A stretch of 64,000 nt of DNA from an uncultured bacterium (GCA_903839725.1 CAIMDG010000001.1:107559-171558), one strand, 5' to 3'. Shown: positions 6,505-29,397, numbered from the stretch's first letter. Program-made: numbers and translations. The notes: generated by a model not told the origin, from the letters alone.

Positions 6505-6628
6505 AGAGACACAGGGGGTGTATGTACTCATTTTCTGCGCAAGTTTAGAGACACATACATTACACCGCGTACCCCAATGTTTACAAACTTGCGCAGAAAA
6601 TGAGTACATACACCCCCTGTGTTCTGTG
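6505..6628. repeat. Palindromic intergenic repeat, family copy A (inverted orientation relative to B/C)
   Basis: Long near-perfect hairpin; core ctcattttctgcgcaagttt...aaacttgcgcagaaaatgag shared with copies at 26407 and 29272. Confidence 0.85.
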
Positions 6629-8978: not shown

Positions 8979-9104
8979 TCATATAGATGTATCCCTATTG
9001 CTCAATAGGGTGTGACCTTAGTTGTCCACACGAGTATTGTCAACAGGTTGGCTTGTTTTAGGATATAATTGAGGAATAGTTTTAATAACTCGTTTATATT
9101 TCTT

Positions 9105-12056
9105 ATGAAAAAATCATATATCTATCTCGTAGGCTTCACCTTTCTCTTTGTTTTGGGATTGTCATTCGTTACGGGATCGAGATTGATTGCTCAGGCACAA
9201 ACAGTAACACCTCTCAGTGGTTGGGCATGGTCATCAACTATAGGATGGCTCAGTTTTAATTCTTCAAATACAGAAATTGCAGCAGTAACAACATCACCTT
9301 ACTCCGTAAAGATTACAGTTGATTCAACTGGTAATACTGCAACATTGAGTGGCCAAGCATGGTCACCAAATATTGGTTGGGTTAGTTTTGATGCTGCAGA
9401 TGTGACAAATTGTCCAGTGGGTACATGTACTCCAACGATTAATTTGAATACAGGAGTAGTTTCTGGTTGGGCAAAAGCGCTTGCAGGAGATGGGACGATG
9501 GGATGGGATGGTTGGATAGGGCTTGCATCCACTACATGGGGAGTTTCGTATACAAAAACAACTGGAGCTTTTGGTGGATATGCATGGGGAAGTACGAACG
9601 TTGGTTGGTTATCTTTTGCAAATGTAACATGTCCATCATGTGTCGTTGCTTTGAATGTAACAAATGTAACTGTTGGTATTGGAGCTGGTAAAGTCACAAG
9701 TTCACCTTCAGGTATCGATTGTGGCATCATTTGTTCATCACAATATAGTCTGAATACCTCTGTAACATTGACAGAAGTACCAAGTGCTAATTCAACATTT
9801 ACTGGTTGGGGAGGAGCATGTAGTGGTACTGCAACGACGTGTACAGTTTCGATGAGTCAGGCAAAAAATGTTACCGCAACTTTCAGTTTGGTACCGATCA
9901 CTGTTTCTGTAAATACAACAGGTCCAGGTACTGTTACAAGTAATTTAGGAGGTATCTCATGTTCTGATGGAAATGCTGGTATATGTAGTAGTACATATGT
10001 CGCAGGCACAAATGTAACATTTACCCAAACACCAGCTGCAGGTGGAAATACATTCCAAGGCTGGGGAGGAGCATGTACAGGTACAGCGACAACATGCAGT
10101 ATTACCGTGAAAGGACATTCCGGTGATTTTGCTGCTACAACATACAATCAATGGAAGAGCCTATCTTTCTCAGCTTCTGAAATCGCTTCTGGTATAGCTG
10201 ATGAAATGTCAGACCCAGATAACGATACTGTACCAAATATCTATGAGTATGCTATCGGAACTGATCCACATGTCTTGAATCCTACTGTGGCAAATAAGAT
10301 GGCTGTGTTCCGTGGTTATAAGTCAGGAAACAATTTTGCATTTGATCACAAACTCAATACAAACCGCACAGATATAACATTTAAGGTTGGGGTAAAAACA
10401 GACCTCAGTACACCTTGGATTTATTATCCAGATGCATCTTCATTTACTGAAACTCAAAAAACGATTGATTCAGCAACAAAGTTGGTTACTGACAAAGCTG
10501 TAACTTCTTTCATGAGTGTTTCGTCAATGTATTTTGTATTCGGTATAAATAAAGGAGGTGTAGATTATTGGGCACCAGCTGCAATTTCTCCTGCCCCTAG
10601 CTTCGGTTCAGACCCAGGAACACCGGCATCAATCCTTCCATTCGTTACAGCAACATTCGTAGGAAATCCAACTCTCACACTCAATAAGAACGGTAGTGGA
10701 TCAGTTACCGATTCATCAGTTGCACCTGGCTCACCTCTCCTGCATTGCGGAACAGCGATAACAACCATACCATGTAGTAGTTCTCAGTACCCATTGAATA
10801 CCGTTGTCACTTTGACAGCTGTTCCTGCGACTGGATATACATTTACCGGTTGGAGTGGTGGAGGATGTGATGCGAATGGTCTTACCACATGTACAGTTAC
10901 TATGGATGTAAGTAAGACTGTTACAGCAACATTTACTACAGTTCCAGTTGATCTTAATGTGACAGTAACCGGCACCGGAGGCATAGTTGTTGGTGGAGGT
11001 ATATCATGTACTTCTACTGGAGGTACATCTTGTTCCGCTACGAGTCCTTCAGGAACTGTAGTGACACTGACAGCAGCTACAACATCTACCGGTATTACAT
11101 TTACAGGTTGGGGCGGAGATTGTCTCTCGAATGCAACTTCTCCAACATGTGTATTGACATTAAGTGCTACAAAAAATGTAACTGCAGTATTCGATGTTGT
11201 CGAATCTAATCTTACGGGAACATGTTCAATACCTGCGACTGCGGCTTATGCACCAATAACAATATCTGCAACTCTTAGCCCTGCTCCATCAGGTGCAAGT
11301 TGGCTCCAAACTTTCTTCTATTTCACTACACCAGGTACCTATAGTCCAACAGTTATTCTTTCGAGAAGTTCAACAGATCAGGTTGATGTTCCTTGCGGAC
11401 AAATTATTATCGCAGCTCCTGGTCCGATAGGAGGAGGGTCAGGAAATCTTACAGGAAGATGCTCATTTAGTCAGTCATCATATCCATGGTCATCTACCTT
11501 GAGTCTTACCCCAATACTCTCGAATACTTCTGGTGGTTCTGGAACTGGTTATTACTTCACACCATCGACTCTCAGTGGATTCACTCCTGGTAGTACAAAT
11601 CAACCTACAGTTACATTGCATGATGATGCCGGCAATAGTGTACCGATTACCTGTGATACATTCACCGTTGGCCTACCTGGTACCGTAACTCTTATTTCGG
11701 GCACATATAAGTTGTCTGTAGCTGGTACTCCAAGTTTGGCAAGTCAGGGAACACGAACTTCTGTTATTTCAAATAACAATGGACCAATCTATGCATATTG
11801 GCTCAGTTCGAGTGCTGGATGTACTATAAATGTGACACGCGCCTCTCTTGTCAAGACAAATCTCTATCTTACTCAATGGGCTCAGAATGGATTGCCTGTT
11901 ACAACTACGTTTGCCAAGAATGATATTAACCTTAAAAAGATATTGATGGTGGGTATACCAGATGATGATTGGAGTCTCCAGTTGATGTGCGGCGGAGTTC
12001 TGAAGGGTCCTAAGGTCAACATAACAGAAAGTGGATCAACAGTAACAGAGATATAA
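9105..12056 (+). CDS. Large secreted/cell-surface protein with Listeria-Bacteroides-type repeat domains
   Basis: Signal/TM at N-terminus; four N-terminal SGWAWSSTIGWLSF-type repeats; at least four 65-80 aa repeats with pattern C..C..Y..VTLTA.P...F.GWGG.C....C.V.M...K.V.A.F; ORF opens at TTG 9069, ATG 9105 preferred. Confidence 0.8.
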   Translation: MKKSYIYLVGFTFLFVLGLSFVTGSRLIAQAQTVTPLSGWAWSSTIGWLSFNSSNTEIAAVTTSPYSVKITVDSTGNTATLSGQAWSPNIGWVSFDAADVTNCPVGTCTPTINLNTGVVSGWAKALAGDGTMGWDGWIGLASTTWGVSYTKTTGAFGGYAWGSTNVGWLSFANVTCPSCVVALNVTNVTVGIGAGKVTSSPSGIDCGIICSSQYSLNTSVTLTEVPSANSTFTGWGGACSGTATTCTVSMSQAKNVTATFSLVPITVSVNTTGPGTVTSNLGGISCSDGNAGICSSTYVAGTNVTFTQTPAAGGNTFQGWGGACTGTATTCSITVKGHSGDFAATTYNQWKSLSFSASEIASGIADEMSDPDNDTVPNIYEYAIGTDPHVLNPTVANKMAVFRGYKSGNNFAFDHKLNTNRTDITFKVGVKTDLSTPWIYYPDASSFTETQKTIDSATKLVTDKAVTSFMSVSSMYFVFGINKGGVDYWAPAAISPAPSFGSDPGTPASILPFVTATFVGNPTLTLNKNGSGSVTDSSVAPGSPLLHCGTAITTIPCSSSQYPLNTVVTLTAVPATGYTFTGWSGGGCDANGLTTCTVTMDVSKTVTATFTTVPVDLNVTVTGTGGIVVGGGISCTSTGGTSCSATSPSGTVVTLTAATTSTGITFTGWGGDCLSNATSPTCVLTLSATKNVTAVFDVVESNLTGTCSIPATAAYAPITISATLSPAPSGASWLQTFFYFTTPGTYSPTVILSRSSTDQVDVPCGQIIIAAPGPIGGGSGNLTGRCSFSQSSYPWSSTLSLTPILSNTSGGSGTGYYFTPSTLSGFTPGSTNQPTVTLHDDAGNSVPITCDTFTVGLPGTVTLISGTYKLSVAGTPSLASQGTRTSVISNNNGPIYAYWLSSSAGCTINVTRASLVKTNLYLTQWAQNGLPVTTTFAKNDINLKKILMVGIPDDDWSLQLMCGGVLKGPKVNITESGSTVTEI

Positions 12057-12072
12057 AAATATATTTCTACAC

Positions 12073-12248: not shown

Positions 12249-13175
12249 CTATAAGTTTTCATTCTTAATCTTTGAATATGCTTTCTTAAGCTCAAGTGTT
12301 AATTTCTCGATATGTTCATTTTGTTTTATCTCATGCAAAGTTCCTCGGATTATTAGTATTCCAAATACTATACTTATAATGAGTAAACTTGCTTCCTCTA
12401 TCGTGGTGTGCACGTCCTTTGCCCCACAAATGCGAATAATCGAGATTATCCATAATGCAAACATGACTAACTCGATGGCGATGACTTTAATATTAAAGAG
12501 CATATGTCGAGTAATTGAGTATGTCATAAGGAAAATCCAGAAAATTGCTGATATAGGACCAAGCCAATTCAAATCAAAATATCCAAATCGGGGTAATATT
12601 ATAGATATGGTAAATGGAATAATTGAACCAAATAATATTAATAAGAATACATATTTAATTTGATTTTTTATTAAAATTTCAATACATTTCTTGTAATCAT
12701 TAAATAGTTTAACTAGACCAATAGTAAATGAGGAAAGAAAATATACTTCAAAAAGTAATGATAGTGGTCCAAAATGCCAACCCCAGGATGATACTGAGTT
12801 GAGATTATATACATCATATACAATTAAGTTAGTAAAAAAGAATAGGTAAAATAATATTATTTCCCAAGCAATTAAAATTATCTGTAAAATTTTTGAAGGT
12901 GCTTTGTTGTGCGGGTATATAAAAAAGAAGTTTAAAAATGATGAAGCAATGAGACTTCCTACAAAATACGTAAATCTGTTTAAAAATGTAGCTACTGTGT
13001 GATTGTTTGTTGAAATTAGGAATCCCATTCCAGTCATCCATATACATGCTAAAAGAATACTAAACCCAAAAGATTTTCCAGATTTATTTTGCGTGCTTAC
13101 ATATGTAAGAATTGTTAAGCATGCAACTATAAGGGCTGTAAGCCAAATAAACATTGAGTATATAGAAATTGTCAT
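12249..13175 (-). CDS. Stand-alone 7TM sensor-domain protein paralogous to the N-terminal domains of the two downstream histidine kinases (no kinase domain)
   Basis: 7 predicted TM helices; C-terminus LHEIKQNEHIEKLTLELKKAYSKIKNENL aligns with HK linker YREISQREKIEKLATDLQKANDRLLELDRQ and stops where the DHp domain would begin. Confidence 0.6.
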   Translation of the reverse strand: MTISIYSMFIWLTALIVACLTILTYVSTQNKSGKSFGFSILLACIWMTGMGFLISTNNHTVATFLNRFTYFVGSLIASSFLNFFFIYPHNKAPSKILQIILIAWEIILFYLFFFTNLIVYDVYNLNSVSSWGWHFGPLSLLFEVYFLSSFTIGLVKLFNDYKKCIEILIKNQIKYVFLLILFGSIIPFTISIILPRFGYFDLNWLGPISAIFWIFLMTYSITRHMLFNIKVIAIELVMFALWIISIIRICGAKDVHTTIEEASLLIISIVFGILIIRGTLHEIKQNEHIEKLTLELKKAYSKIKNENL

Positions 13176-13329
13176 AATATTTGGTAATTATAATACCTGA
13201 TTAAATTTAATGCTAAGTAGGATTGAATATTGAATATTCAGGGTAATCATGCTTAATTATTCAATCAATAATTTAATACAAAGTATTTTATGTAAGGCTT
13301 CATGTTAGTCAATATGTTATAATCTATTA

Positions 13330-14148
13330 ATGGTAAATTTCGAGGAACAATTTTGTACAAAAAGAAGTATAAATTTCTATGGAAGATCTATATCGTTCGT
13401 AGATGTGACTCCACCCATGCTCATAAGCAATATTCCTATTATTATTGCTCCTGGTTGGGGAGAAACGCCAAAAACCTTCAAAGATTTAATACACTTGTTA
13501 TTTGACGCCGGATTTCGAGTGGTTTCGATGACACATCCACGACAAGATTTGAAGTTAATTACTAGAAGTAATATTTCTAGATTAGAATCACAAAAAGCTG
13601 AAATTATTTTAACAGTATTAAAATTTCTTGGTATTGAAAAGGTAAACGTTGTAGCTCACTCAGAGGGTGCCATAAACTCAGTTATTGCGGCGCACATGAA
13701 ACCTACTTTATTTAAAAATATATTACTTGTGGGACCAGGGGGGCTTGTTGAAAATGAAAATTTTACTGAATTAGCAGGTAGGTTTATTGGTAATATGATT
13801 CAAGGCGGAGGTCAAATATTTACGGATTCTGTCGCGCGAAAGTATATTATCAGATCAGGGTTGGAAACTTTTAAATATTTTCTTATGAATCCAGTCATGG
13901 GACTTCTAGAAGGGAGTGCAATATCCAGAACGCATCTACAAGATTTTTTGGTTGATTTACATTCAAATAATATAACTATAGGAGTAATTCATGGCGTAGA
14001 TGATATAGTTTTTCCACTCAAGAAAATGAAATCATTGACTGAATTAAAATGGATTAGCTTTTATTCAGTTGAGGGTGATCATAGTGACATATATGATCAT
14101 TCAGAGAAGTATATTACCTTTATTCAAAAAAGATTTACTGATAATTAA
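13330..14148 (+). CDS. Alpha/beta-hydrolase fold protein
   Basis: PGWGET N-terminal motif, nucleophile elbow VVAHSEGA (sm-x-Ser-x-sm), size 272 aa; AT-rich gene. Confidence 0.6.
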   Translation: MVNFEEQFCTKRSINFYGRSISFVDVTPPMLISNIPIIIAPGWGETPKTFKDLIHLLFDAGFRVVSMTHPRQDLKLITRSNISRLESQKAEIILTVLKFLGIEKVNVVAHSEGAINSVIAAHMKPTLFKNILLVGPGGLVENENFTELAGRFIGNMIQGGGQIFTDSVARKYIIRSGLETFKYFLMNPVMGLLEGSAISRTHLQDFLVDLHSNNITIGVIHGVDDIVFPLKKMKSLTELKWISFYSVEGDHSDIYDHSEKYITFIQKRFTDN

Positions 14149-14159
14149 GATTTAATGAA

Positions 14160-14831
14160 ATGAATAAATTTTATATAATTAGTTTACTTATTCAGCAAAA
14201 GTTACCTTGGGTTCCGGTAAGAATATTGTTAGTTTTATTTGCTCATTTCAAAGTAACTGGATTAGAAAATCTAAAGGGTATTAAAGGTAATGCCATTTTT
14301 GCTTGTAATCATGCTAGCGAACTAGATATTCCGCTTCTTCCAGCCGCAATACCTTTTTGGTCACATTTTTCCCCAATGTTATACGCATCTCGAGAAAGTG
14401 GTTTTTATGGGGGATCCGGATGGCGAAGACATTTTTATGGCGGTGTATTTTTTAATTTTTTAGGATCATATCCTGTGGTAGTTGGCTTACGAAATTATAA
14501 AAAAGCACTATCTCATCAAATTCGTATTATTAATACTGGTAATAGCTTATGTATTTTCCCTGAAGGAAGAACTACACCAAACGGCATAATCCAAGGTGCA
14601 AAAGGTGGGGTAGCTTATCTTGCGTATATAACAAATGTTCCAATAGTTCCCGTTAAACTCGGTGGAACTTTTAGATTTTCAATAAAGAATTTTCTATTAA
14701 GAAAAATTAAATTATCGGTTAGTTTTGGCAAACCCATATATTTATCTGTAAATAATGAAGTAGATATACCAATCAAAGAGTGCAAGGATAGGGCAAATGA
14801 GGTTATGGATGTAATTAAAAAGATGGTATAA
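14160..14831 (+). CDS. 1-acyl-sn-glycerol-3-phosphate acyltransferase-like (PlsC family) lysophospholipid acyltransferase
   Basis: HX4D motif NHASELD, FPEGRTT motif III, N-terminal membrane anchor. Confidence 0.7.
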   Translation: MNKFYIISLLIQQKLPWVPVRILLVLFAHFKVTGLENLKGIKGNAIFACNHASELDIPLLPAAIPFWSHFSPMLYASRESGFYGGSGWRRHFYGGVFFNFLGSYPVVVGLRNYKKALSHQIRIINTGNSLCIFPEGRTTPNGIIQGAKGGVAYLAYITNVPIVPVKLGGTFRFSIKNFLLRKIKLSVSFGKPIYLSVNNEVDIPIKECKDRANEVMDVIKKMV

Positions 14832-14841
14832 TTTAATTACC

Positions 14842-15717
14842 ATGAAAGGAGTTTTCATCGACAATGATCATACGGTTGGATATGAAACCAACTCAATTTT
14901 TCGTAAAATATTTAATCTTATTTTTATACCTGTATTGTATATTTTTCCATCTAGAGCGGTACATATTTTAAAAAAAATTCATGTATCAACAGAAGAGATG
15001 GTTGCTCATGCTGGAACACATAGGGCAATGGAAGTAATTTACGATGTCAACCCTCGGCCCAAAGCAAATTATTTTCAAAATTTGTTTCTGTCAGTATGGC
15101 TGGGAATGAATAACTCAAAGGCTGTGAGGAATAGGCTTAGAATGGTTAAAAAGGAAATCAAAAGGAAAATACATAAACTTTCTGAACTGAATAAAGAAAT
15201 AAAAATTATTAATATTGCTTCTGGATCAGCCCGTGCTGTATTTGAATCTATTCATGAGGTTCCTTTGAAAAATGATACAAAACTATCTGCTGTTTTTGTT
15301 GATAAAAATTATGAGGCAATTGCCTTCAGTCAACAGCTAGCCAGTACTCATAGGTTTCTCCCATCTTTTAGATGGGTAAATGATTATGCTCATAATTATT
15401 TAAATAACAATGAGAATAAGTCAAAGTTCAATATCGCAGAAGTTGTCGGTTTGCTGGAATACTTAAGTGATAAAGATGCAATAAATATTTTCTTATTAAT
15501 TTATGAGTGTTTAGATTCTGATGGTATTCTCATTACAACAAATATTGTTAGTAATTTTGAAAGTACATTTATATCAAATTCTGTTGGATGGAAAATGAAC
15601 CATCGCAATGTTGATGAGTTGTCTTCGCTTCTAATCGAGGCAGGGTTTAAATTGGACAAGATGAATATTTATTATGAGCCTCAACGAATACACTGCGTAA
15701 TAGTGGCTCAAAAATGA
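14842..15717 (+). CDS. Hypothetical protein, possible class I SAM-dependent methyltransferase
   Basis: IINIASGSARAV resembles MTase motif I, VFVDKNYEA resembles motif II; weak. Confidence 0.35.
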   Translation: MKGVFIDNDHTVGYETNSIFRKIFNLIFIPVLYIFPSRAVHILKKIHVSTEEMVAHAGTHRAMEVIYDVNPRPKANYFQNLFLSVWLGMNNSKAVRNRLRMVKKEIKRKIHKLSELNKEIKIINIASGSARAVFESIHEVPLKNDTKLSAVFVDKNYEAIAFSQQLASTHRFLPSFRWVNDYAHNYLNNNENKSKFNIAEVVGLLEYLSDKDAINIFLLIYECLDSDGILITTNIVSNFESTFISNSVGWKMNHRNVDELSSLLIEAGFKLDKMNIYYEPQRIHCVIVAQK

Positions 15718-17342
15718 ACCCAGTTAATCTATTTGCCATATCAGCCTTAGTTAATGGAATCGTCTCTATTACATTTGGACTGCTTGTTATTTCTAAAAAT
15801 TGGAGAGACAGAATGAACCAGATATTCTTCTTAATGACTGTTTTTTTAGCTATTTGGTCTTTTTCATACTGGCAGTGGCAATTGGCAACTAGTTATGATA
15901 CAGCATTACTGTGGGTTAAATTGTTATCGATTGGATCACTGTTTATTCCAATATTTTTTTACAATTGGGTTATAAAATTAATTAATGAAGAAAGTCTTCT
16001 TAATAGAGTTGTCTTATGGTCTTGTTACATAACATCTTTTTGTATTCTTTTTTTTGTTAATTCTAATTTGTATATTTCCGGATTAGAAAATAAATCTTTT
16101 TTTCAGTTTTGGCCTAGTTCAGGTGTGGTCTATGATATATATTTTTGTTATATATATTTTGGCCTAATTTTGTATACAGTTTATATATTGTTTCGTACTT
16201 ATTTTATAACCAAAGATAGAGATAAAAAAGGACAGTTATTGTATATAATTATTAGTTGCGTTCTTGGCTTTGGTGGAGTTATAACAGATTTTCCTCTTTG
16301 GTGGGATATTAACATACCACCATATGGTAATTTTTTAGCCGCTGTTTTTCCTCTATTACTAGGTTATTCAATTTTAAAGTACAAGTTATTTAATGTCCGA
16401 GCTATTGTTTCTGAAATTCTTGTATTTTTTATTTCAATCGTTTTGTTAATTGAAGCAATTTTATCAGTTTCCGTCCTGGAAGCAGTAGTAAAATTTTCGG
16501 TATTTATTATTGTTTCAATTTTTGGGTATATACTTATTCGCTCTGTATACAGAGAAATCTCCCAGCGCGAAAAAATCGAAAAACTCGCCACTGACCTCCA
16601 GAAAGCCAATGACCGCCTTCTCGAACTTGATCGTCAGAAGTCAGAATTCGTCTCATTCGCTACACACCAACTTCGCGCACCTCTAACTGCCATGAAAGGG
16701 TATGCCTCTCTCATTTTGGAAGGGGATTTGGGGGCTATTAGTGACCAGCTCCGTCAGGCAATTTCTCGAATATTTGAATCATCGAAGACATTGGCAAATA
16801 TAGTTGATGACTATTTGAACCTTACTCGTATTGAGTTGGGAACAATGAAATATGCATTTGATACAGTTGATCTGAAGACGGTTGTTGAAGATGTTATCGG
16901 AGAGCTTGGGCCAAATATCAAGAAAGATGGGCTTGAATTCACATTCAAGGCTGAGGATATGGGTGATCAATGGGATTGGCGTGTTACGGCGGACCGAGAC
17001 AAGCTTAAGCAAGTTATTGCAAACTTGGTCGACAATTCGATCAAATATACGTTACAAGGCTGGGTTCACGTGACATTGTCTTTTGACCGACCTAAGCATA
17101 AGTTTCTTTTTAGAGTAGAAGATAATGGTATAGGTATAGCCTCAGAGACACTACCATTGCTATTCAACAAATTTAGTCGTGCGGGAAATGCCAATAAGAC
17201 AAATATCAAGGGTACAGGACTTGGTTTGTTCGTGGCAAAACAAATTATTGACTCGCATCATGGTGCCATATACGCAACGTCACCAGGTGAAGGTAAAGGA
17301 TCGACATTTACCGTTGAATTAGAACCATTCGCTAAAGCATAA
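15714..17342 (+). CDS. 7TM sensor histidine kinase (HisKA + HATPase_c)
   Basis: 7 TM helices, H-box SFATHQLRAPLTAMKGY, N-box/G-boxes (NLVDNSIKYT, EDNGIGI, GTGLGLFVAKQI); start overlaps previous gene by 4 nt. Confidence 0.85.
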   Translation: MNPVNLFAISALVNGIVSITFGLLVISKNWRDRMNQIFFLMTVFLAIWSFSYWQWQLATSYDTALLWVKLLSIGSLFIPIFFYNWVIKLINEESLLNRVVLWSCYITSFCILFFVNSNLYISGLENKSFFQFWPSSGVVYDIYFCYIYFGLILYTVYILFRTYFITKDRDKKGQLLYIIISCVLGFGGVITDFPLWWDINIPPYGNFLAAVFPLLLGYSILKYKLFNVRAIVSEILVFFISIVLLIEAILSVSVLEAVVKFSVFIIVSIFGYILIRSVYREISQREKIEKLATDLQKANDRLLELDRQKSEFVSFATHQLRAPLTAMKGYASLILEGDLGAISDQLRQAISRIFESSKTLANIVDDYLNLTRIELGTMKYAFDTVDLKTVVEDVIGELGPNIKKDGLEFTFKAEDMGDQWDWRVTADRDKLKQVIANLVDNSIKYTLQGWVHVTLSFDRPKHKFLFRVEDNGIGIASETLPLLFNKFSRAGNANKTNIKGTGLGLFVAKQIIDSHHGAIYATSPGEGKGSTFTVELEPFAKA

Positions 17343-17346
17343 TTAT

Positions 17347-18888
17347 ATGAATTTATTTGCTGCATCATGTCTTGTTCTTTCTCTCAGTAGTATCCTATTT
17401 AGTTTTATTCTCTACAGAAGTGATCCGTTGAATAAAGTAAATAAATATTGGTTCATTTCAAGTCTCGTCTTTTCTCTATGGTCATTCGGTCTATTTGAGA
17501 TTGCACTTACATCCGATGATTCCATGGCCTTCTTCTGGCAGAACATGATCAATGTATCAGCCGTATTCATTCCCTTGGTATATGTATTTTTTCTCTTTGA
17601 ATTCCTCGGACTCAAGCAACGAAAGATGCGTATCGGGTTGTTTGTCTTGGCAGCAGCATTCTCTGAATTTAGTCTGACTCCATTGTTCCAACAAGGCATA
17701 ACAATGACAAAAGGTTTCTTCTGGATCAATCCAGGACCATACTATTTGCTGTTTCCAGTCTATTTCATGGTCTATGCAATCATATCAGTATCTCTCCTCG
17801 TTGTTTCCTATGGAAATTCAGAAAAGGGTAGTCCTATGAGAAAGCAGATACGTAATATGATCATCGGAAGTTTGATTGGCTATTTGGGTGGAGTTACAAA
17901 CTTTTTTCCTGAAATATTCGGAGACTATCCATACGGTAACTATTTGATCATTTTTTACATTATATTCATGATCTATGGCGTTATACGCTATAGAAGTTTG
18001 AATGTAAAAACTATTTCAACACAACTATTTTCAGGAGCTTTGATATCAGTGGTATTCTTCAATTTTATGCGTTCAGTTAATCTGGAAGATTGGATAGTTA
18101 ATTCAATTGTCCTCATTCTCGTTATTACATTTAGTATGATCTTGGTTATTGCAAATGATCACTTGAACGAAACTAACCGAGAAAAGTCAGAGTTCGTATC
18201 ATTTGCTACGCACCAACTTCGCGCACCACTAACTGCTATGAAAGGGTACGGTTCGCTTATTCTCGAGGGAGACATGGGTGAAGTAAACCCAGAAGTTCGC
18301 CAGGCAGTTTCTCGTATGTTCGAATCAACCAAGACCCTCGCCAGTATTGTTGATGACTATCTTGATGTAACTCGTATCGAATTGGGAACCATGAAATACA
18401 TATTTGACCGTGTTGATCTCAAATTGTTGATTGAAGATGTTATCGCTGAACTCAAACCAAATCTCAAACGTGAAGGTGTTGCTTTTGACTTTAAGATTGA
18501 AGAAATGGGTCAGCAGTGGGATTGGTCAGTAAAAGCGGATCGCAACAAATTGAAGCAAGTTATTGCAAATCTATTGGACAATTCAGTGAAGTATACCTTG
18601 CAAGGTTTTGTGCACGTCTCATTGTCTTTTGATAGAAAGAAACATAAGTTTGTATTTAAAATCGAAGATACTGGAGTAGGTATTGCACCAGAGGTTCTTC
18701 CAACACTCTTCAATAAATTCATCCGCGCCGGTAATGCGAATACTGCCAATGTTAAAGGTACTGGTTTGGGTCTTTATGTTGCAAAACAAATTGTTGAAGG
18801 TCATCGTGGAGCAATTCGTGCTTCATCTGCCGGAGAAGGAAAAGGCTCAATATTTGTAGTTGAGCTCAATCCATTCGAGATTCTCTAA
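17347..18888 (+). CDS. 7TM sensor histidine kinase, tandem paralogue
   Basis: Same architecture; kinase domain about 70% identical to the upstream HK at protein level, nucleotide similarity obvious by eye. Confidence 0.85.
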   Translation: MNLFAASCLVLSLSSILFSFILYRSDPLNKVNKYWFISSLVFSLWSFGLFEIALTSDDSMAFFWQNMINVSAVFIPLVYVFFLFEFLGLKQRKMRIGLFVLAAAFSEFSLTPLFQQGITMTKGFFWINPGPYYLLFPVYFMVYAIISVSLLVVSYGNSEKGSPMRKQIRNMIIGSLIGYLGGVTNFFPEIFGDYPYGNYLIIFYIIFMIYGVIRYRSLNVKTISTQLFSGALISVVFFNFMRSVNLEDWIVNSIVLILVITFSMILVIANDHLNETNREKSEFVSFATHQLRAPLTAMKGYGSLILEGDMGEVNPEVRQAVSRMFESTKTLASIVDDYLDVTRIELGTMKYIFDRVDLKLLIEDVIAELKPNLKREGVAFDFKIEEMGQQWDWSVKADRNKLKQVIANLLDNSVKYTLQGFVHVSLSFDRKKHKFVFKIEDTGVGIAPEVLPTLFNKFIRAGNANTANVKGTGLGLYVAKQIVEGHRGAIRASSAGEGKGSIFVVELNPFEIL

Positions 18889-29271: not shown

Positions 29272-29397
29272 AACCCTGCACACAGGGGTAGTATTCTCAT
29301 TTTCTGCGCAAGTTTGTAAACATTGGGGTACGCGGTGTAATGTAAGCGTCTCTAAACTTGCGCAGAAAATGAGAATACTACCCCTGTGTGCAGGGTT
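29272..29397. repeat. Palindromic intergenic repeat, family copy C
   Basis: aaccctgcacacaggggtagtattctcattttctgcgcaagttt...aaacttgcgcagaaaatgagaatactacccctgtgtgcagggtt followed by TTTTT. Confidence 0.85.

Follow-up and report, generated by a model that had tools for sequence, protein, structure and literature searches.

A 64,000-nucleotide stretch of DNA from an uncultured bacterium (GCA_903839725.1, CAIMDG010000001.1:107559-171558), referred to here as the window and numbered from its first nucleotide, encodes two adjacent sensor histidine kinases on the + strand: HK1 (15,714-17,342; 542 amino acids) and, 4 nucleotides downstream, HK2 (17,347-18,888; 513 amino acids). HK1 is a chimera joined at the border between its seven-transmembrane (7TM) sensor and its DHp domain, a conclusion supported by a break in homology at 16,548-16,578, by copies of the sensor cassette elsewhere, by incongruent domain trees and by a shift in G+C content at third codon positions (GC3). 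The foreign unit is larger than the sensor: over 3.4 kb (13,193-16,565) it takes in three enzyme genes as well. The HK1 transmitter was inherited vertically with the flanking core genes, and HK2 was inherited vertically as a whole. An earlier reading made from the sequence alone had proposed that an AT-rich sensor cassette was fused to a duplicated kinase cassette; the chimera and its fusion point at the 7TM/DHp border are borne out, and the unit has to be widened to include the three enzyme genes. Overall we think it likely that HK1 and HK2 are old tandem kinases, that HK1 is a mosaic of a core transmitter and an exchanged sensor/enzyme block, and that both kinases would act through a shared, unlinked response regulator.

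Both proteins carry a HisKA_7TM sensor (PF16927; 54.8 bits at residues 16-228 of HK1 and 48.4 bits in HK2, cutoff 28.6), followed by HisKA (PF00512; 53.2 and 50.8 bits) and HATPase_c (PF02518; 94.2 and 84.9 bits), the latter two above their curated cutoffs. The HK1 sensor module, of a type designated A, occupies residues 1-284 (15,714-16,565) and the transmitter, consisting of the signalling helix, DHp and ATPase, extends from 16,566 to 17,342; HK2 joins a B-type sensor to its transmitter. A crude hydropathy scan gave 8-10 peaks, several of them overlapping, and does not provide a rigorous count of helices. The H-box reads SFATHQLR, with the predicted phospho-accepting histidine at position 318 of HK1 (16,665-16,667) and 289 of HK2 (18,211-18,213). 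The N, G1, F and G2 boxes of HK1 are DNSIKYT, EDNGIGI, LFNKFSRA and GTGLGL, and their equivalents are present in HK2, whose motifs are intact. By sequence, both proteins have the DHp with H-box histidine and the GHKL ATPase boxes of class I HisKA-type kinases, and judged by motif integrity they are predicted to be catalytically intact membrane sensor kinases. Among NCBIfam models the transmitter halves fall with PhoR/WalK-type kinases, in no specific equivalog.

Related genomic loci (L-numbers) were viewed with 10-kb flanks, and homologous proteins were given P-numbers. Synteny between locus L006 and the window extends from LeuRS to DnaB, with nucleotide identity of about 76-87%; the HK1 counterpart of L006 (P0024) is 95% identical to HK1 in the kinase half and only 24% identical in the sensor. 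Between a kinase-less 7TM gene (t7 in the window) and the HK1 kinase half, L006 carries an acyltransferase, a HAD hydrolase and a B'-type sensor; L018 carries at the same place a 362-residue unknown protein and a C-type sensor. Both loci have the HK1 kinase half, HK2, YqeY and RmuC in common with the window. BLASTN homology between the window and L006 stops at 13,192 and resumes at 16,566, that with L018 resumes at 16,563, and nucleotide identity is 80-92% from there onward. When identity was followed codon by codon, the jump from about 0.4-0.5 to 0.8-0.92 against L006 and L018 fell between codons 279 and 289 (16,548-16,578), where REISQ is followed by REKIEKLA at the membrane exit and the start of the signalling helix. 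Identity to the non-syntenic loci L017 and L019 was 0.70-0.83 over most of the sensor half and lower past the joint, although for L019 this level held only to about 16,395 and dipped to 0.5-0.65 near 15,950-16,050. At the protein level the HK1 transmitter is 94.5% identical to that of L006 and 91.8% to that of L018, with 0.035 nonsynonymous substitutions per site (dN) against L006. The HK1 sensor is 76-80% identical to the sensors of L017, L019, L022, L026, P0002 and P0025, and 24-28% identical to those of the syntenic orthologues. The left junction of the replaced block lies in the intergenic, divergent promoter region between t7 and the hydrolase gene (13,193-13,339): L006 homology has ended by this point, and BLASTN homology to the non-syntenic cassette copies begins at 13,339-13,432.

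From 13,339 to about 16,560 the window aligns at 68-73% nucleotide identity with a four-gene block (hydrolase, acyltransferase, Methyltransf_20 and a kinase with an A-type sensor) at unrelated sites in other Paceibacteria, namely between L5 and S8 in the ribosomal-protein operon (L017, L023, L024) and beside a glycosyltransferase (L019-L021); it is present also in L010, L016, L022 and L026. The alignments to these non-syntenic blocks reach as far as 16,853. At L017 (5,571-9,620), as in L023 and L024, the block is accompanied by an AspRS gene and the two together interrupt this highly conserved operon. The L017 and L019 loci have no housekeeping gene in common with the window by which genome kinship could be gauged. 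The block is missing at the syntenic site in the closest relatives, occurs in other contexts and deviates at synonymous sites, all properties of a horizontally exchanged unit. No integrase or transposase Pfam matches were found in the block, no tRNA gene in the window and no flanking repeats, and a classical integrative island or mobile-element insertion was rejected on these grounds.

Bootstrapped neighbour-joining trees of the two halves conflict, so that the congruence of domain trees that would have spoken against a chimera was not observed. The kinase tree unites HK1 of the window, L006 and L018 in a clade with 98% bootstrap support, which has 0% in the sensor tree. The sensor tree places the window with the A-type sensors at 100%, a clade that has 0% in the kinase tree; it places HK1 of L006 with HK2 and the B-type sensors, and HK1 of L018 with P0046, each at 100%. 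Across 119 full-length homologues, A-type sensors, which form one cluster, occurred on kinases of 22 clusters, and kinases of the HK1-type cluster carried sensors of 13 clusters.

Base composition changes at the same place. In 200-nucleotide segments, G+C rises from 0.25-0.33 (15,900-16,599) to 0.43-0.47 (16,500-16,799); the sensor half of HK1 has a G+C of 0.288 and a GC3 of 0.223, and the kinase half 0.428 and 0.385. HK2 shows no break (sensor G+C 0.353 and GC3 0.367, kinase GC3 0.342). An expected GC3 was calculated from the amino acid content of each segment and the codon usage of the window itself. Conditioned in this way, the HK1 sensor has a GC3 of 0.194 against 0.370 expected (z = -6.2), compared with z = +0.35 for the HK1 kinase half and z = -1.25 for the HK2 sensor. 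The abrupt switch at about 16,560 and the less AT-rich HK2 sensor described in the sequence-only reading were both confirmed, and the former persists at synonymous sites; a purely amino-acid cause of the G+C shift is rejected by this test. That reading missed that the break is the right-hand edge of a longer low-G+C stretch that starts near 12,060, with 1-kb segments from 12 to 16 kb at 0.30-0.33 compared with about 0.41 elsewhere, and that this stretch holds a third HisKA_7TM gene, t7; the conditioned z ranges from -4.3 to -6.2 for t7, the hydrolase, the acyltransferase, Methyltransf_20 and the HK1 sensor. Steps in GC3 at the joint recur in L006 (0.23 to 0.50), L018 (0.27 to 0.57), L027 (0.23 to 0.59) and L028 (0.24 to 0.40) and are weak in L029 and L030. 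Because L028 and L030 carry the same cassette type, yet the step is strong in one and weak in the other, the recurring unequal steps are better explained by exchange and later amelioration than by something intrinsic to the sensor.

The kinase halves of HK1 and HK2 are 71-73% identical in amino acids and 68.7% in nucleotides, with 45% identity at third positions, in agreement with the approximately 70% protein identity and visible DNA similarity noted earlier; a repeat finder matched 16,605-17,051 to 18,151-18,597 at 71-76%. The sensor halves are only about 24% identical. This DNA similarity is no more than protein-level constraint alone gives. Between the two kinase halves dN is 0.22 and dS (synonymous substitutions per site) is 2.87, which is saturated, compared with a dN of 0.035 and a dS of 1.4 when HK1 kinase halves are compared between the window and L006. 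Both relatives, L006 and L018, already have HK1 and HK2 side by side; the paralogues are 72% identical in both the window genome and L006, whereas orthologues are 83-95% identical. HK2 is conserved in both halves, with overall amino acid identities of 86-87% to L006 and 84% to L018 (sensor 86-90%, kinase 82-83%). The duplication of HK1 and HK2 therefore predates the split from these two closest sampled relatives. The nearest non-orthologous relatives of the HK2 kinase half among database proteins are HK1-clade kinases (72-74%), and for this reason a tandem duplication is a plausible ultimate origin of the pair, albeit an old one; the neighbour-joining tree groups the HK1 clade with P0003 and places the HK2 clade as their sister.

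The sequence-only reading had taken the duplication to be recent. Recent duplication, or ongoing gene conversion keeping the kinase halves alike, could be argued from the 4-nucleotide spacing of the genes and from a 60-nucleotide stretch at the H-box that is 90% identical between them, but is very improbable given the saturated dS, the low third-position identity, the closer match of orthologues than of paralogues and the presence of the pair in both relatives; the dN/dS and identity comparisons gave no sign of gene conversion. That HK1 is not chimeric at all, and that the drop in G+C merely follows the amino acid and codon content of a hydrophobic 7TM domain, is less credible still. First-position G+C is indeed lower in the two sensors (0.34 and 0.37) than in the kinase halves (0.54-0.56), as segments rich in Phe, Ile, Leu and Tyr predict, and A-type kinases in other genomes likewise have a lower GC3 in the sensor than in the kinase. 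The conditioned GC3 nevertheless separates the HK1 sensor from that of HK2, the three soluble enzymes upstream share the deficit, the comparative alignments place the homology break at the same spot, the trees are incongruent, and the strength of the break varies between L028 and L030 within one cassette type. Equally hard to credit is a metagenome assembly artefact, in which contigs of two organisms were joined in the conserved H-box region. The source is metagenomic, the joint adjoins the most conserved DNA of the family, and several assemblies break inside the low-G+C block. Against this, the exact HK1 protein occurs on 9 contigs, the exact HK2 protein likewise recurs on contigs of several independent samples, the joint is spanned at 99.97-100% identity in different samples and contig-naming schemes, and one independent contig starts inside the sensor at 16,159. 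The block also lies between two L006-syntenic segments, so that two mis-joins would be needed, and the reading frame is intact. An assembly chimera was rejected because independent contigs span the joint.

The direction of the exchange is less firmly fixed: somewhat more probably than not, the window is the recombinant rather than L006 and L018. The opposite polarity, in which the window keeps the ancestral order of Methyltransf_20 followed by an A-type HK1 and both relatives replaced their blocks, so that HK1 is a mosaic by comparison only, seems to us unlikely, if far from fanciful. The distant syntenic loci L012 and L025 (LeuRS 59-63% identical) have Methyltransf_20 followed by an A-type kinase beside YqeY, the nearest outgroup in the kinase tree (P0003) has an A-type sensor, and three states in three close genomes require two changes under either polarity. 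However, the synonymous composition of the cassette departs from that of the HK1 kinase half and the right flank, and the window sensor is closest (76-80%) to sensors on kinases that are only 32-69% identical, the A-type sensors on the closest kinases being 57-62% identical. A B-type ancestor of the pair is favoured by HK2, whose sensor is of this type and whose nearest non-orthologue is HK1 of L006 (57% overall), and by the syntenic site of L029, which holds acyltransferase-HAD followed by a B'-type kinase. Several further points weigh against our preferred explanation. Since L012, L025 and P0003 carry the A-type sensor on a related kinase, this type may be ancestral at the slot and L006 and L018 may be the recombinants. 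The nearest known cassette copy is only 70-75% identical in nucleotides and dS is saturated, too distant a match to serve as the donor or to date the event. Genes outside the swapped block share the low GC3: t7 and a large gene to its left (Flg_new_2), both resident, are equally AT-rich at third positions, and composition alone therefore cannot delimit what was exchanged. The alternative cassettes in L006, L018, L027 and L028 are likewise AT-richer than their own kinase halves, and part of the G+C break could stem from a property general to this flexible region instead of from a recent arrival. That the breakpoints coincide is to some extent inevitable, since homology between genes with unrelated sensors has to start where conservation across the family sets in, and apparent modularity is inflated by homologue sets that were picked by similarity to HK1 or HK2. 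Lastly, as no response regulator was found, the signalling output is conjectural.

Under the preferred explanation, the whole block of enzyme genes and sensor would most likely have been replaced by homologous recombination, with the right-hand crossover in the strongly conserved DNA of the signalling helix and H-box and the left-hand crossover in the intergenic region beside t7. In related genomes this slot is occupied by different blocks of one or more enzymes and a matching 7TM sensor, which join a kinase of the same kind at the same motif, so that the output would be held constant while the input is swapped. From the architecture, a signal would pass from the 7TM sensor through the signalling helix to DHp/ATPase autophosphorylation and on to an unlinked regulator, and the sensor probably reads a membrane-associated signal tied to the translationally coupled partner enzyme.

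The slot beside YqeY, RmuC, L21, RecR and DnaB also holds a kinase of this family in L012, L025, L028, L029, L030 and the P0031 locus. In at least nine related genomes a conserved kinase module is joined to differing sensor types at one motif, REKIEKLA, the conserved form of which at these joints is R-E-[KR]-I-E-x-L-A. The type of sensor goes with the gene immediately 5' of the kinase. A-type sensors are preceded by Methyltransf_20 at every locus examined, including those whose sensors are only 37-44% identical. B'-type sensors follow a HAD gene (L006 and L029, 2/2), and S8-type sensors, 74% identical to each other, follow a transglutaminase-core gene (Transglut_core) that is itself preceded by flavoprotein and DFP genes (L028 and L030, 2/2). 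Single cases are an SDR epimerase (P0031 locus, P0031-type), a class V aminotransferase (L027, P0043-type, where the kinase is not beside YqeY) and the 362-residue unknown protein (L018, C-type). The start and stop codons of the kinase and its 5' neighbour usually overlap or nearly do so.

From this co-variation and the tight gene packing we hypothesise that enzyme and sensor are functionally coupled. Tentatively, the kinase may in Paceibacteria be a fixed-slot output module into which blocks of a dedicated enzyme and a matching 7TM sensor are exchanged as units, each subtype sensing the activity or product of its enzyme or docking with it. The putative pairs, at the same modest level of confidence, would be Methyltransf_20 with A-type, HAD with B'-type, transglutaminase-core with S8-type, and SDR, aminotransferase or the unknown protein with the other types. 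Input specificity might then evolve by swapping at REKIEKLA, formally like the exchange of toxin-immunity modules in contact-dependent inhibition (CDI) and Rhs systems, a parallel that we regard as possible more than probable; on this view t7, as a conserved 7TM paralogue without a kinase, could modulate these kinases as well. P0003, known as a protein only from a 3.4-kb ENA contig, is an independent fusion of an A-type sensor to an HK1-type kinase and has a P0062-like variant of the last transmembrane helix and linker. Compared with the window, its joint appears to be shifted downstream by roughly 10-15 residues, which suggests that fusion can work at more than one point.

No receiver domain was detected in the six translated frames of the 64-kb window with a home-made REC profile (best E 0.12), and PF00072 had no match among the called genes of approximately 5.7-29 kb or in 40 further open reading frames of at least 120 residues, consistent with the original observation that the window lacks a receiver gene. 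No receiver-domain protein was found among the called neighbours of related loci either. A two-component pair in which kinase and receiver are encoded together is thus not seen within the window or the related neighbourhoods; the description of HK1 and HK2 as orphan kinases holds for these neighbourhoods only. The first DHp helix after the histidine, HQLRAPLTAMKGY, is identical in HK1 and HK2 and is also the commonest form in the family. As this is the partner-recognition helix, the two kinases probably phosphorylate the same unlinked response regulator. A search of the literature on two-component systems in Patescibacteria returned only kinase frequency data.

The host is a small-genome, Patescibacteria-type bacterium counted among the Paceibacteria, and the named homologues of HK1 and HK2 are nearly all annotated as proteins of Patescibacteria or Paceibacterota metagenome-assembled genomes. 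To the right of HK2, YqeY (18,901-19,371, - strand; PF09424) is the first gene of the conserved flank YqeY, RmuC, L21, RecR and DnaB, which marks the syntenic locus across Paceibacteria (L006, L012, L018, L025, L028, L029, L030 and the P0031 locus). The replaced block begins with an alpha/beta-hydrolase (13,330-14,148, + strand; PF00561; GC3 z = -4.8), which is 65-73% identical in amino acids to the first cassette gene of L010, L016, L017, L019 and L023, followed by a PlsC-type acyltransferase (14,160-14,831, + strand; PF01553, with TIGR00530 below its cutoff; GC3 z = -5.8), 62-79% identical in the cassette copies. The third gene encodes a class I S-adenosylmethionine-dependent methyltransferase of the Methyltransf_20 family (14,842-15,717, + strand; PF12147), and its stop codon overlaps the HK1 start (ATGA). 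Its AlphaFold2 model has a mean confidence (pLDDT) of 87, and the best PDB folds were 3ocj and small-molecule O-/C-methyltransferases. No PDB sequence match, NCBIfam match or literature on PF12147 was found for this protein, and the fold points to no substrate. A lipid methyltransferase of the cyclopropane type was considered and is unsupported, the best folds being the small-molecule enzymes and an uncharacterised Bordetella protein. Because the gaps between the hydrolase, acyltransferase, Methyltransf_20, HK1 and HK2 genes are -4 to +11 nucleotides, these four + strand genes and HK2 probably form one operon. Promoter and terminator scans performed no better than on shuffled sequence, and an Rfam scan of the window gave no matches. 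Independent assemblies of this same organism repeatedly break inside the low-G+C cassette region, at 12,995 (L002), 13,909 (L001 and L004) and 16,159 (L005); poor coverage of AT-rich DNA, or differences in the cassette between strains, could be responsible.

On the other side of the left junction, t7 (12,249-13,175, - strand; 308 amino acids) is transcribed divergently from the cassette operon and encodes a HisKA_7TM protein (PF16927, 39.1 bits) that ends in a coiled-coil linker, HIEKLTLELKKAYSKIKNEN, without DHp or ATPase domain. A counterpart of equal length is found in L006 (70% amino acid and 70.6% nucleotide identity) and L012 (38%), and in L011 this sensor type is carried by a full-length kinase. 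t7 is a resident gene outside the swapped block; a fresh truncation remnant was rejected, there being no kinase remnant downstream and a gene of equal length conserved in both loci. t7 may be a stand-alone modulator of HK1 or HK2. Further left and also outside the block, a 995-residue surface-type protein with Flg_new_2/InlB B-repeats (9,069-12,056, + strand; PF18998; GC3 z = -6.2) makes up the left part of the low-GC3 zone; it is syntenic with L006 but gives only patchy matches of 64-67% in nucleotides and 42-56% in amino acids, compared with approximately 80% nucleotide identity in the flanks, and diverges from its L006 orthologue much faster than the adjacent genes.

Other features of the window were recorded in passing. 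The TPM_phosphatase, LemA and adjacent 293-residue protein genes (20,951-23,558) form a GC-rich outlier (G+C 0.46-0.49, GC3 0.53-0.57, z = +4.7 to +6.0) that deviates in the direction opposite to the cassette. An intergenic hairpin repeat of about 115 nucleotides occurs at 6,509-6,622, 26,408-26,527 and approximately 29,278-29,391, and also in L006 (21,358-21,460); its arms of 45-49 base pairs are 92-93% complementary around a loop of 22-24 nucleotides, chance would predict no copy in the window against the three present, and Rfam contains nothing that matches it. The one other signalling-type domain seen in the window belongs to a stand-alone HD protein (439-1,131) that matches HD_5/HDOD weakly.

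Capsule and O-antigen locus switching, and the exchange of the C-terminal toxin and immunity modules of CdiA and Rhs proteins at a conserved motif, are familiar cases in which a cassette is replaced through homologous recombination in the conserved DNA on either side. HK1 resembles these in having a variable, AT-richer block with conserved bounds, no mobility genes, one boundary within a gene at a conserved motif, and a partner gene that travels with it. In contrast to these systems, what varies here is the input domain at the N terminus of a signalling protein, the partner is an enzyme, and no conflict or immunity function is indicated. Some intramembrane-sensing kinases rely on an accessory protein, as BceS does on the BceAB transporter and LiaS on LiaF. 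The HK1 family shares with them a sensor that is almost wholly membrane-embedded and a tightly linked neighbour gene specific to the sensor type, but its partners look like soluble enzymes (methyltransferase, HAD, transglutaminase-core, SDR, aminotransferase), the sensors have seven rather than two transmembrane segments, and any interaction between the two is putative.

Lineage-specific expansions of kinases typically show domain shuffling and kinases unlinked from regulators (Alm, Huang and Arkin 2006, PMC1630713). The present case is similar in its duplicated kinase domain with different sensors, the lack of a regulator in the operon and the derivation of sensors from sources more distant than those of the kinase domain. 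It differs in that the exchange is resolved to a 30-nucleotide interval between close relatives, in that the sensor moves with neighbouring enzyme genes as a block, with at least six alternative blocks for one slot, and in that the host is a reduced-genome member of a kinase-poor group: Patescibacteria (Candidate Phyla Radiation) have very few kinases, 0.289 per 100 genes (PMC10805038). HisKA_7TM (PF16927) is already catalogued as a sensor domain, with descriptions mostly from archaea and Firmicutes (PMC5847659). HK1 and HK2 have the usual order of an N-terminal 7TM domain directly before HisKA and HATPase_c, and they and t7 pass the Pfam cutoff. Unlike the family as described, for which no signal is known, the kinases studied here come with a conserved kinase-less member and with subtypes that co-vary with the 5' enzyme gene.

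The finding documents, at good resolution, a process already known, domain shuffling among sensor kinases. Less familiar features are that partner enzyme genes are transferred together with the sensor, that one fixed chromosomal slot accommodates many alternative blocks and that a kinase-less paralogue is conserved. Such shuffling is usually inferred from domain lists across distant genomes, whereas here the exchange is visible directly, with the joint mapped to about 30 nucleotides, alternative alleles in close relatives and a sensor that travels with enzyme genes. The joint marks a naturally tolerated fusion point for engineering chimeric kinases. If the pairing of enzyme and sensor is functional, it would give a first handle on what HisKA_7TM sensors detect, and would show symbiotic, reduced-genome bacteria with few kinases retuning their inputs while one output is kept.

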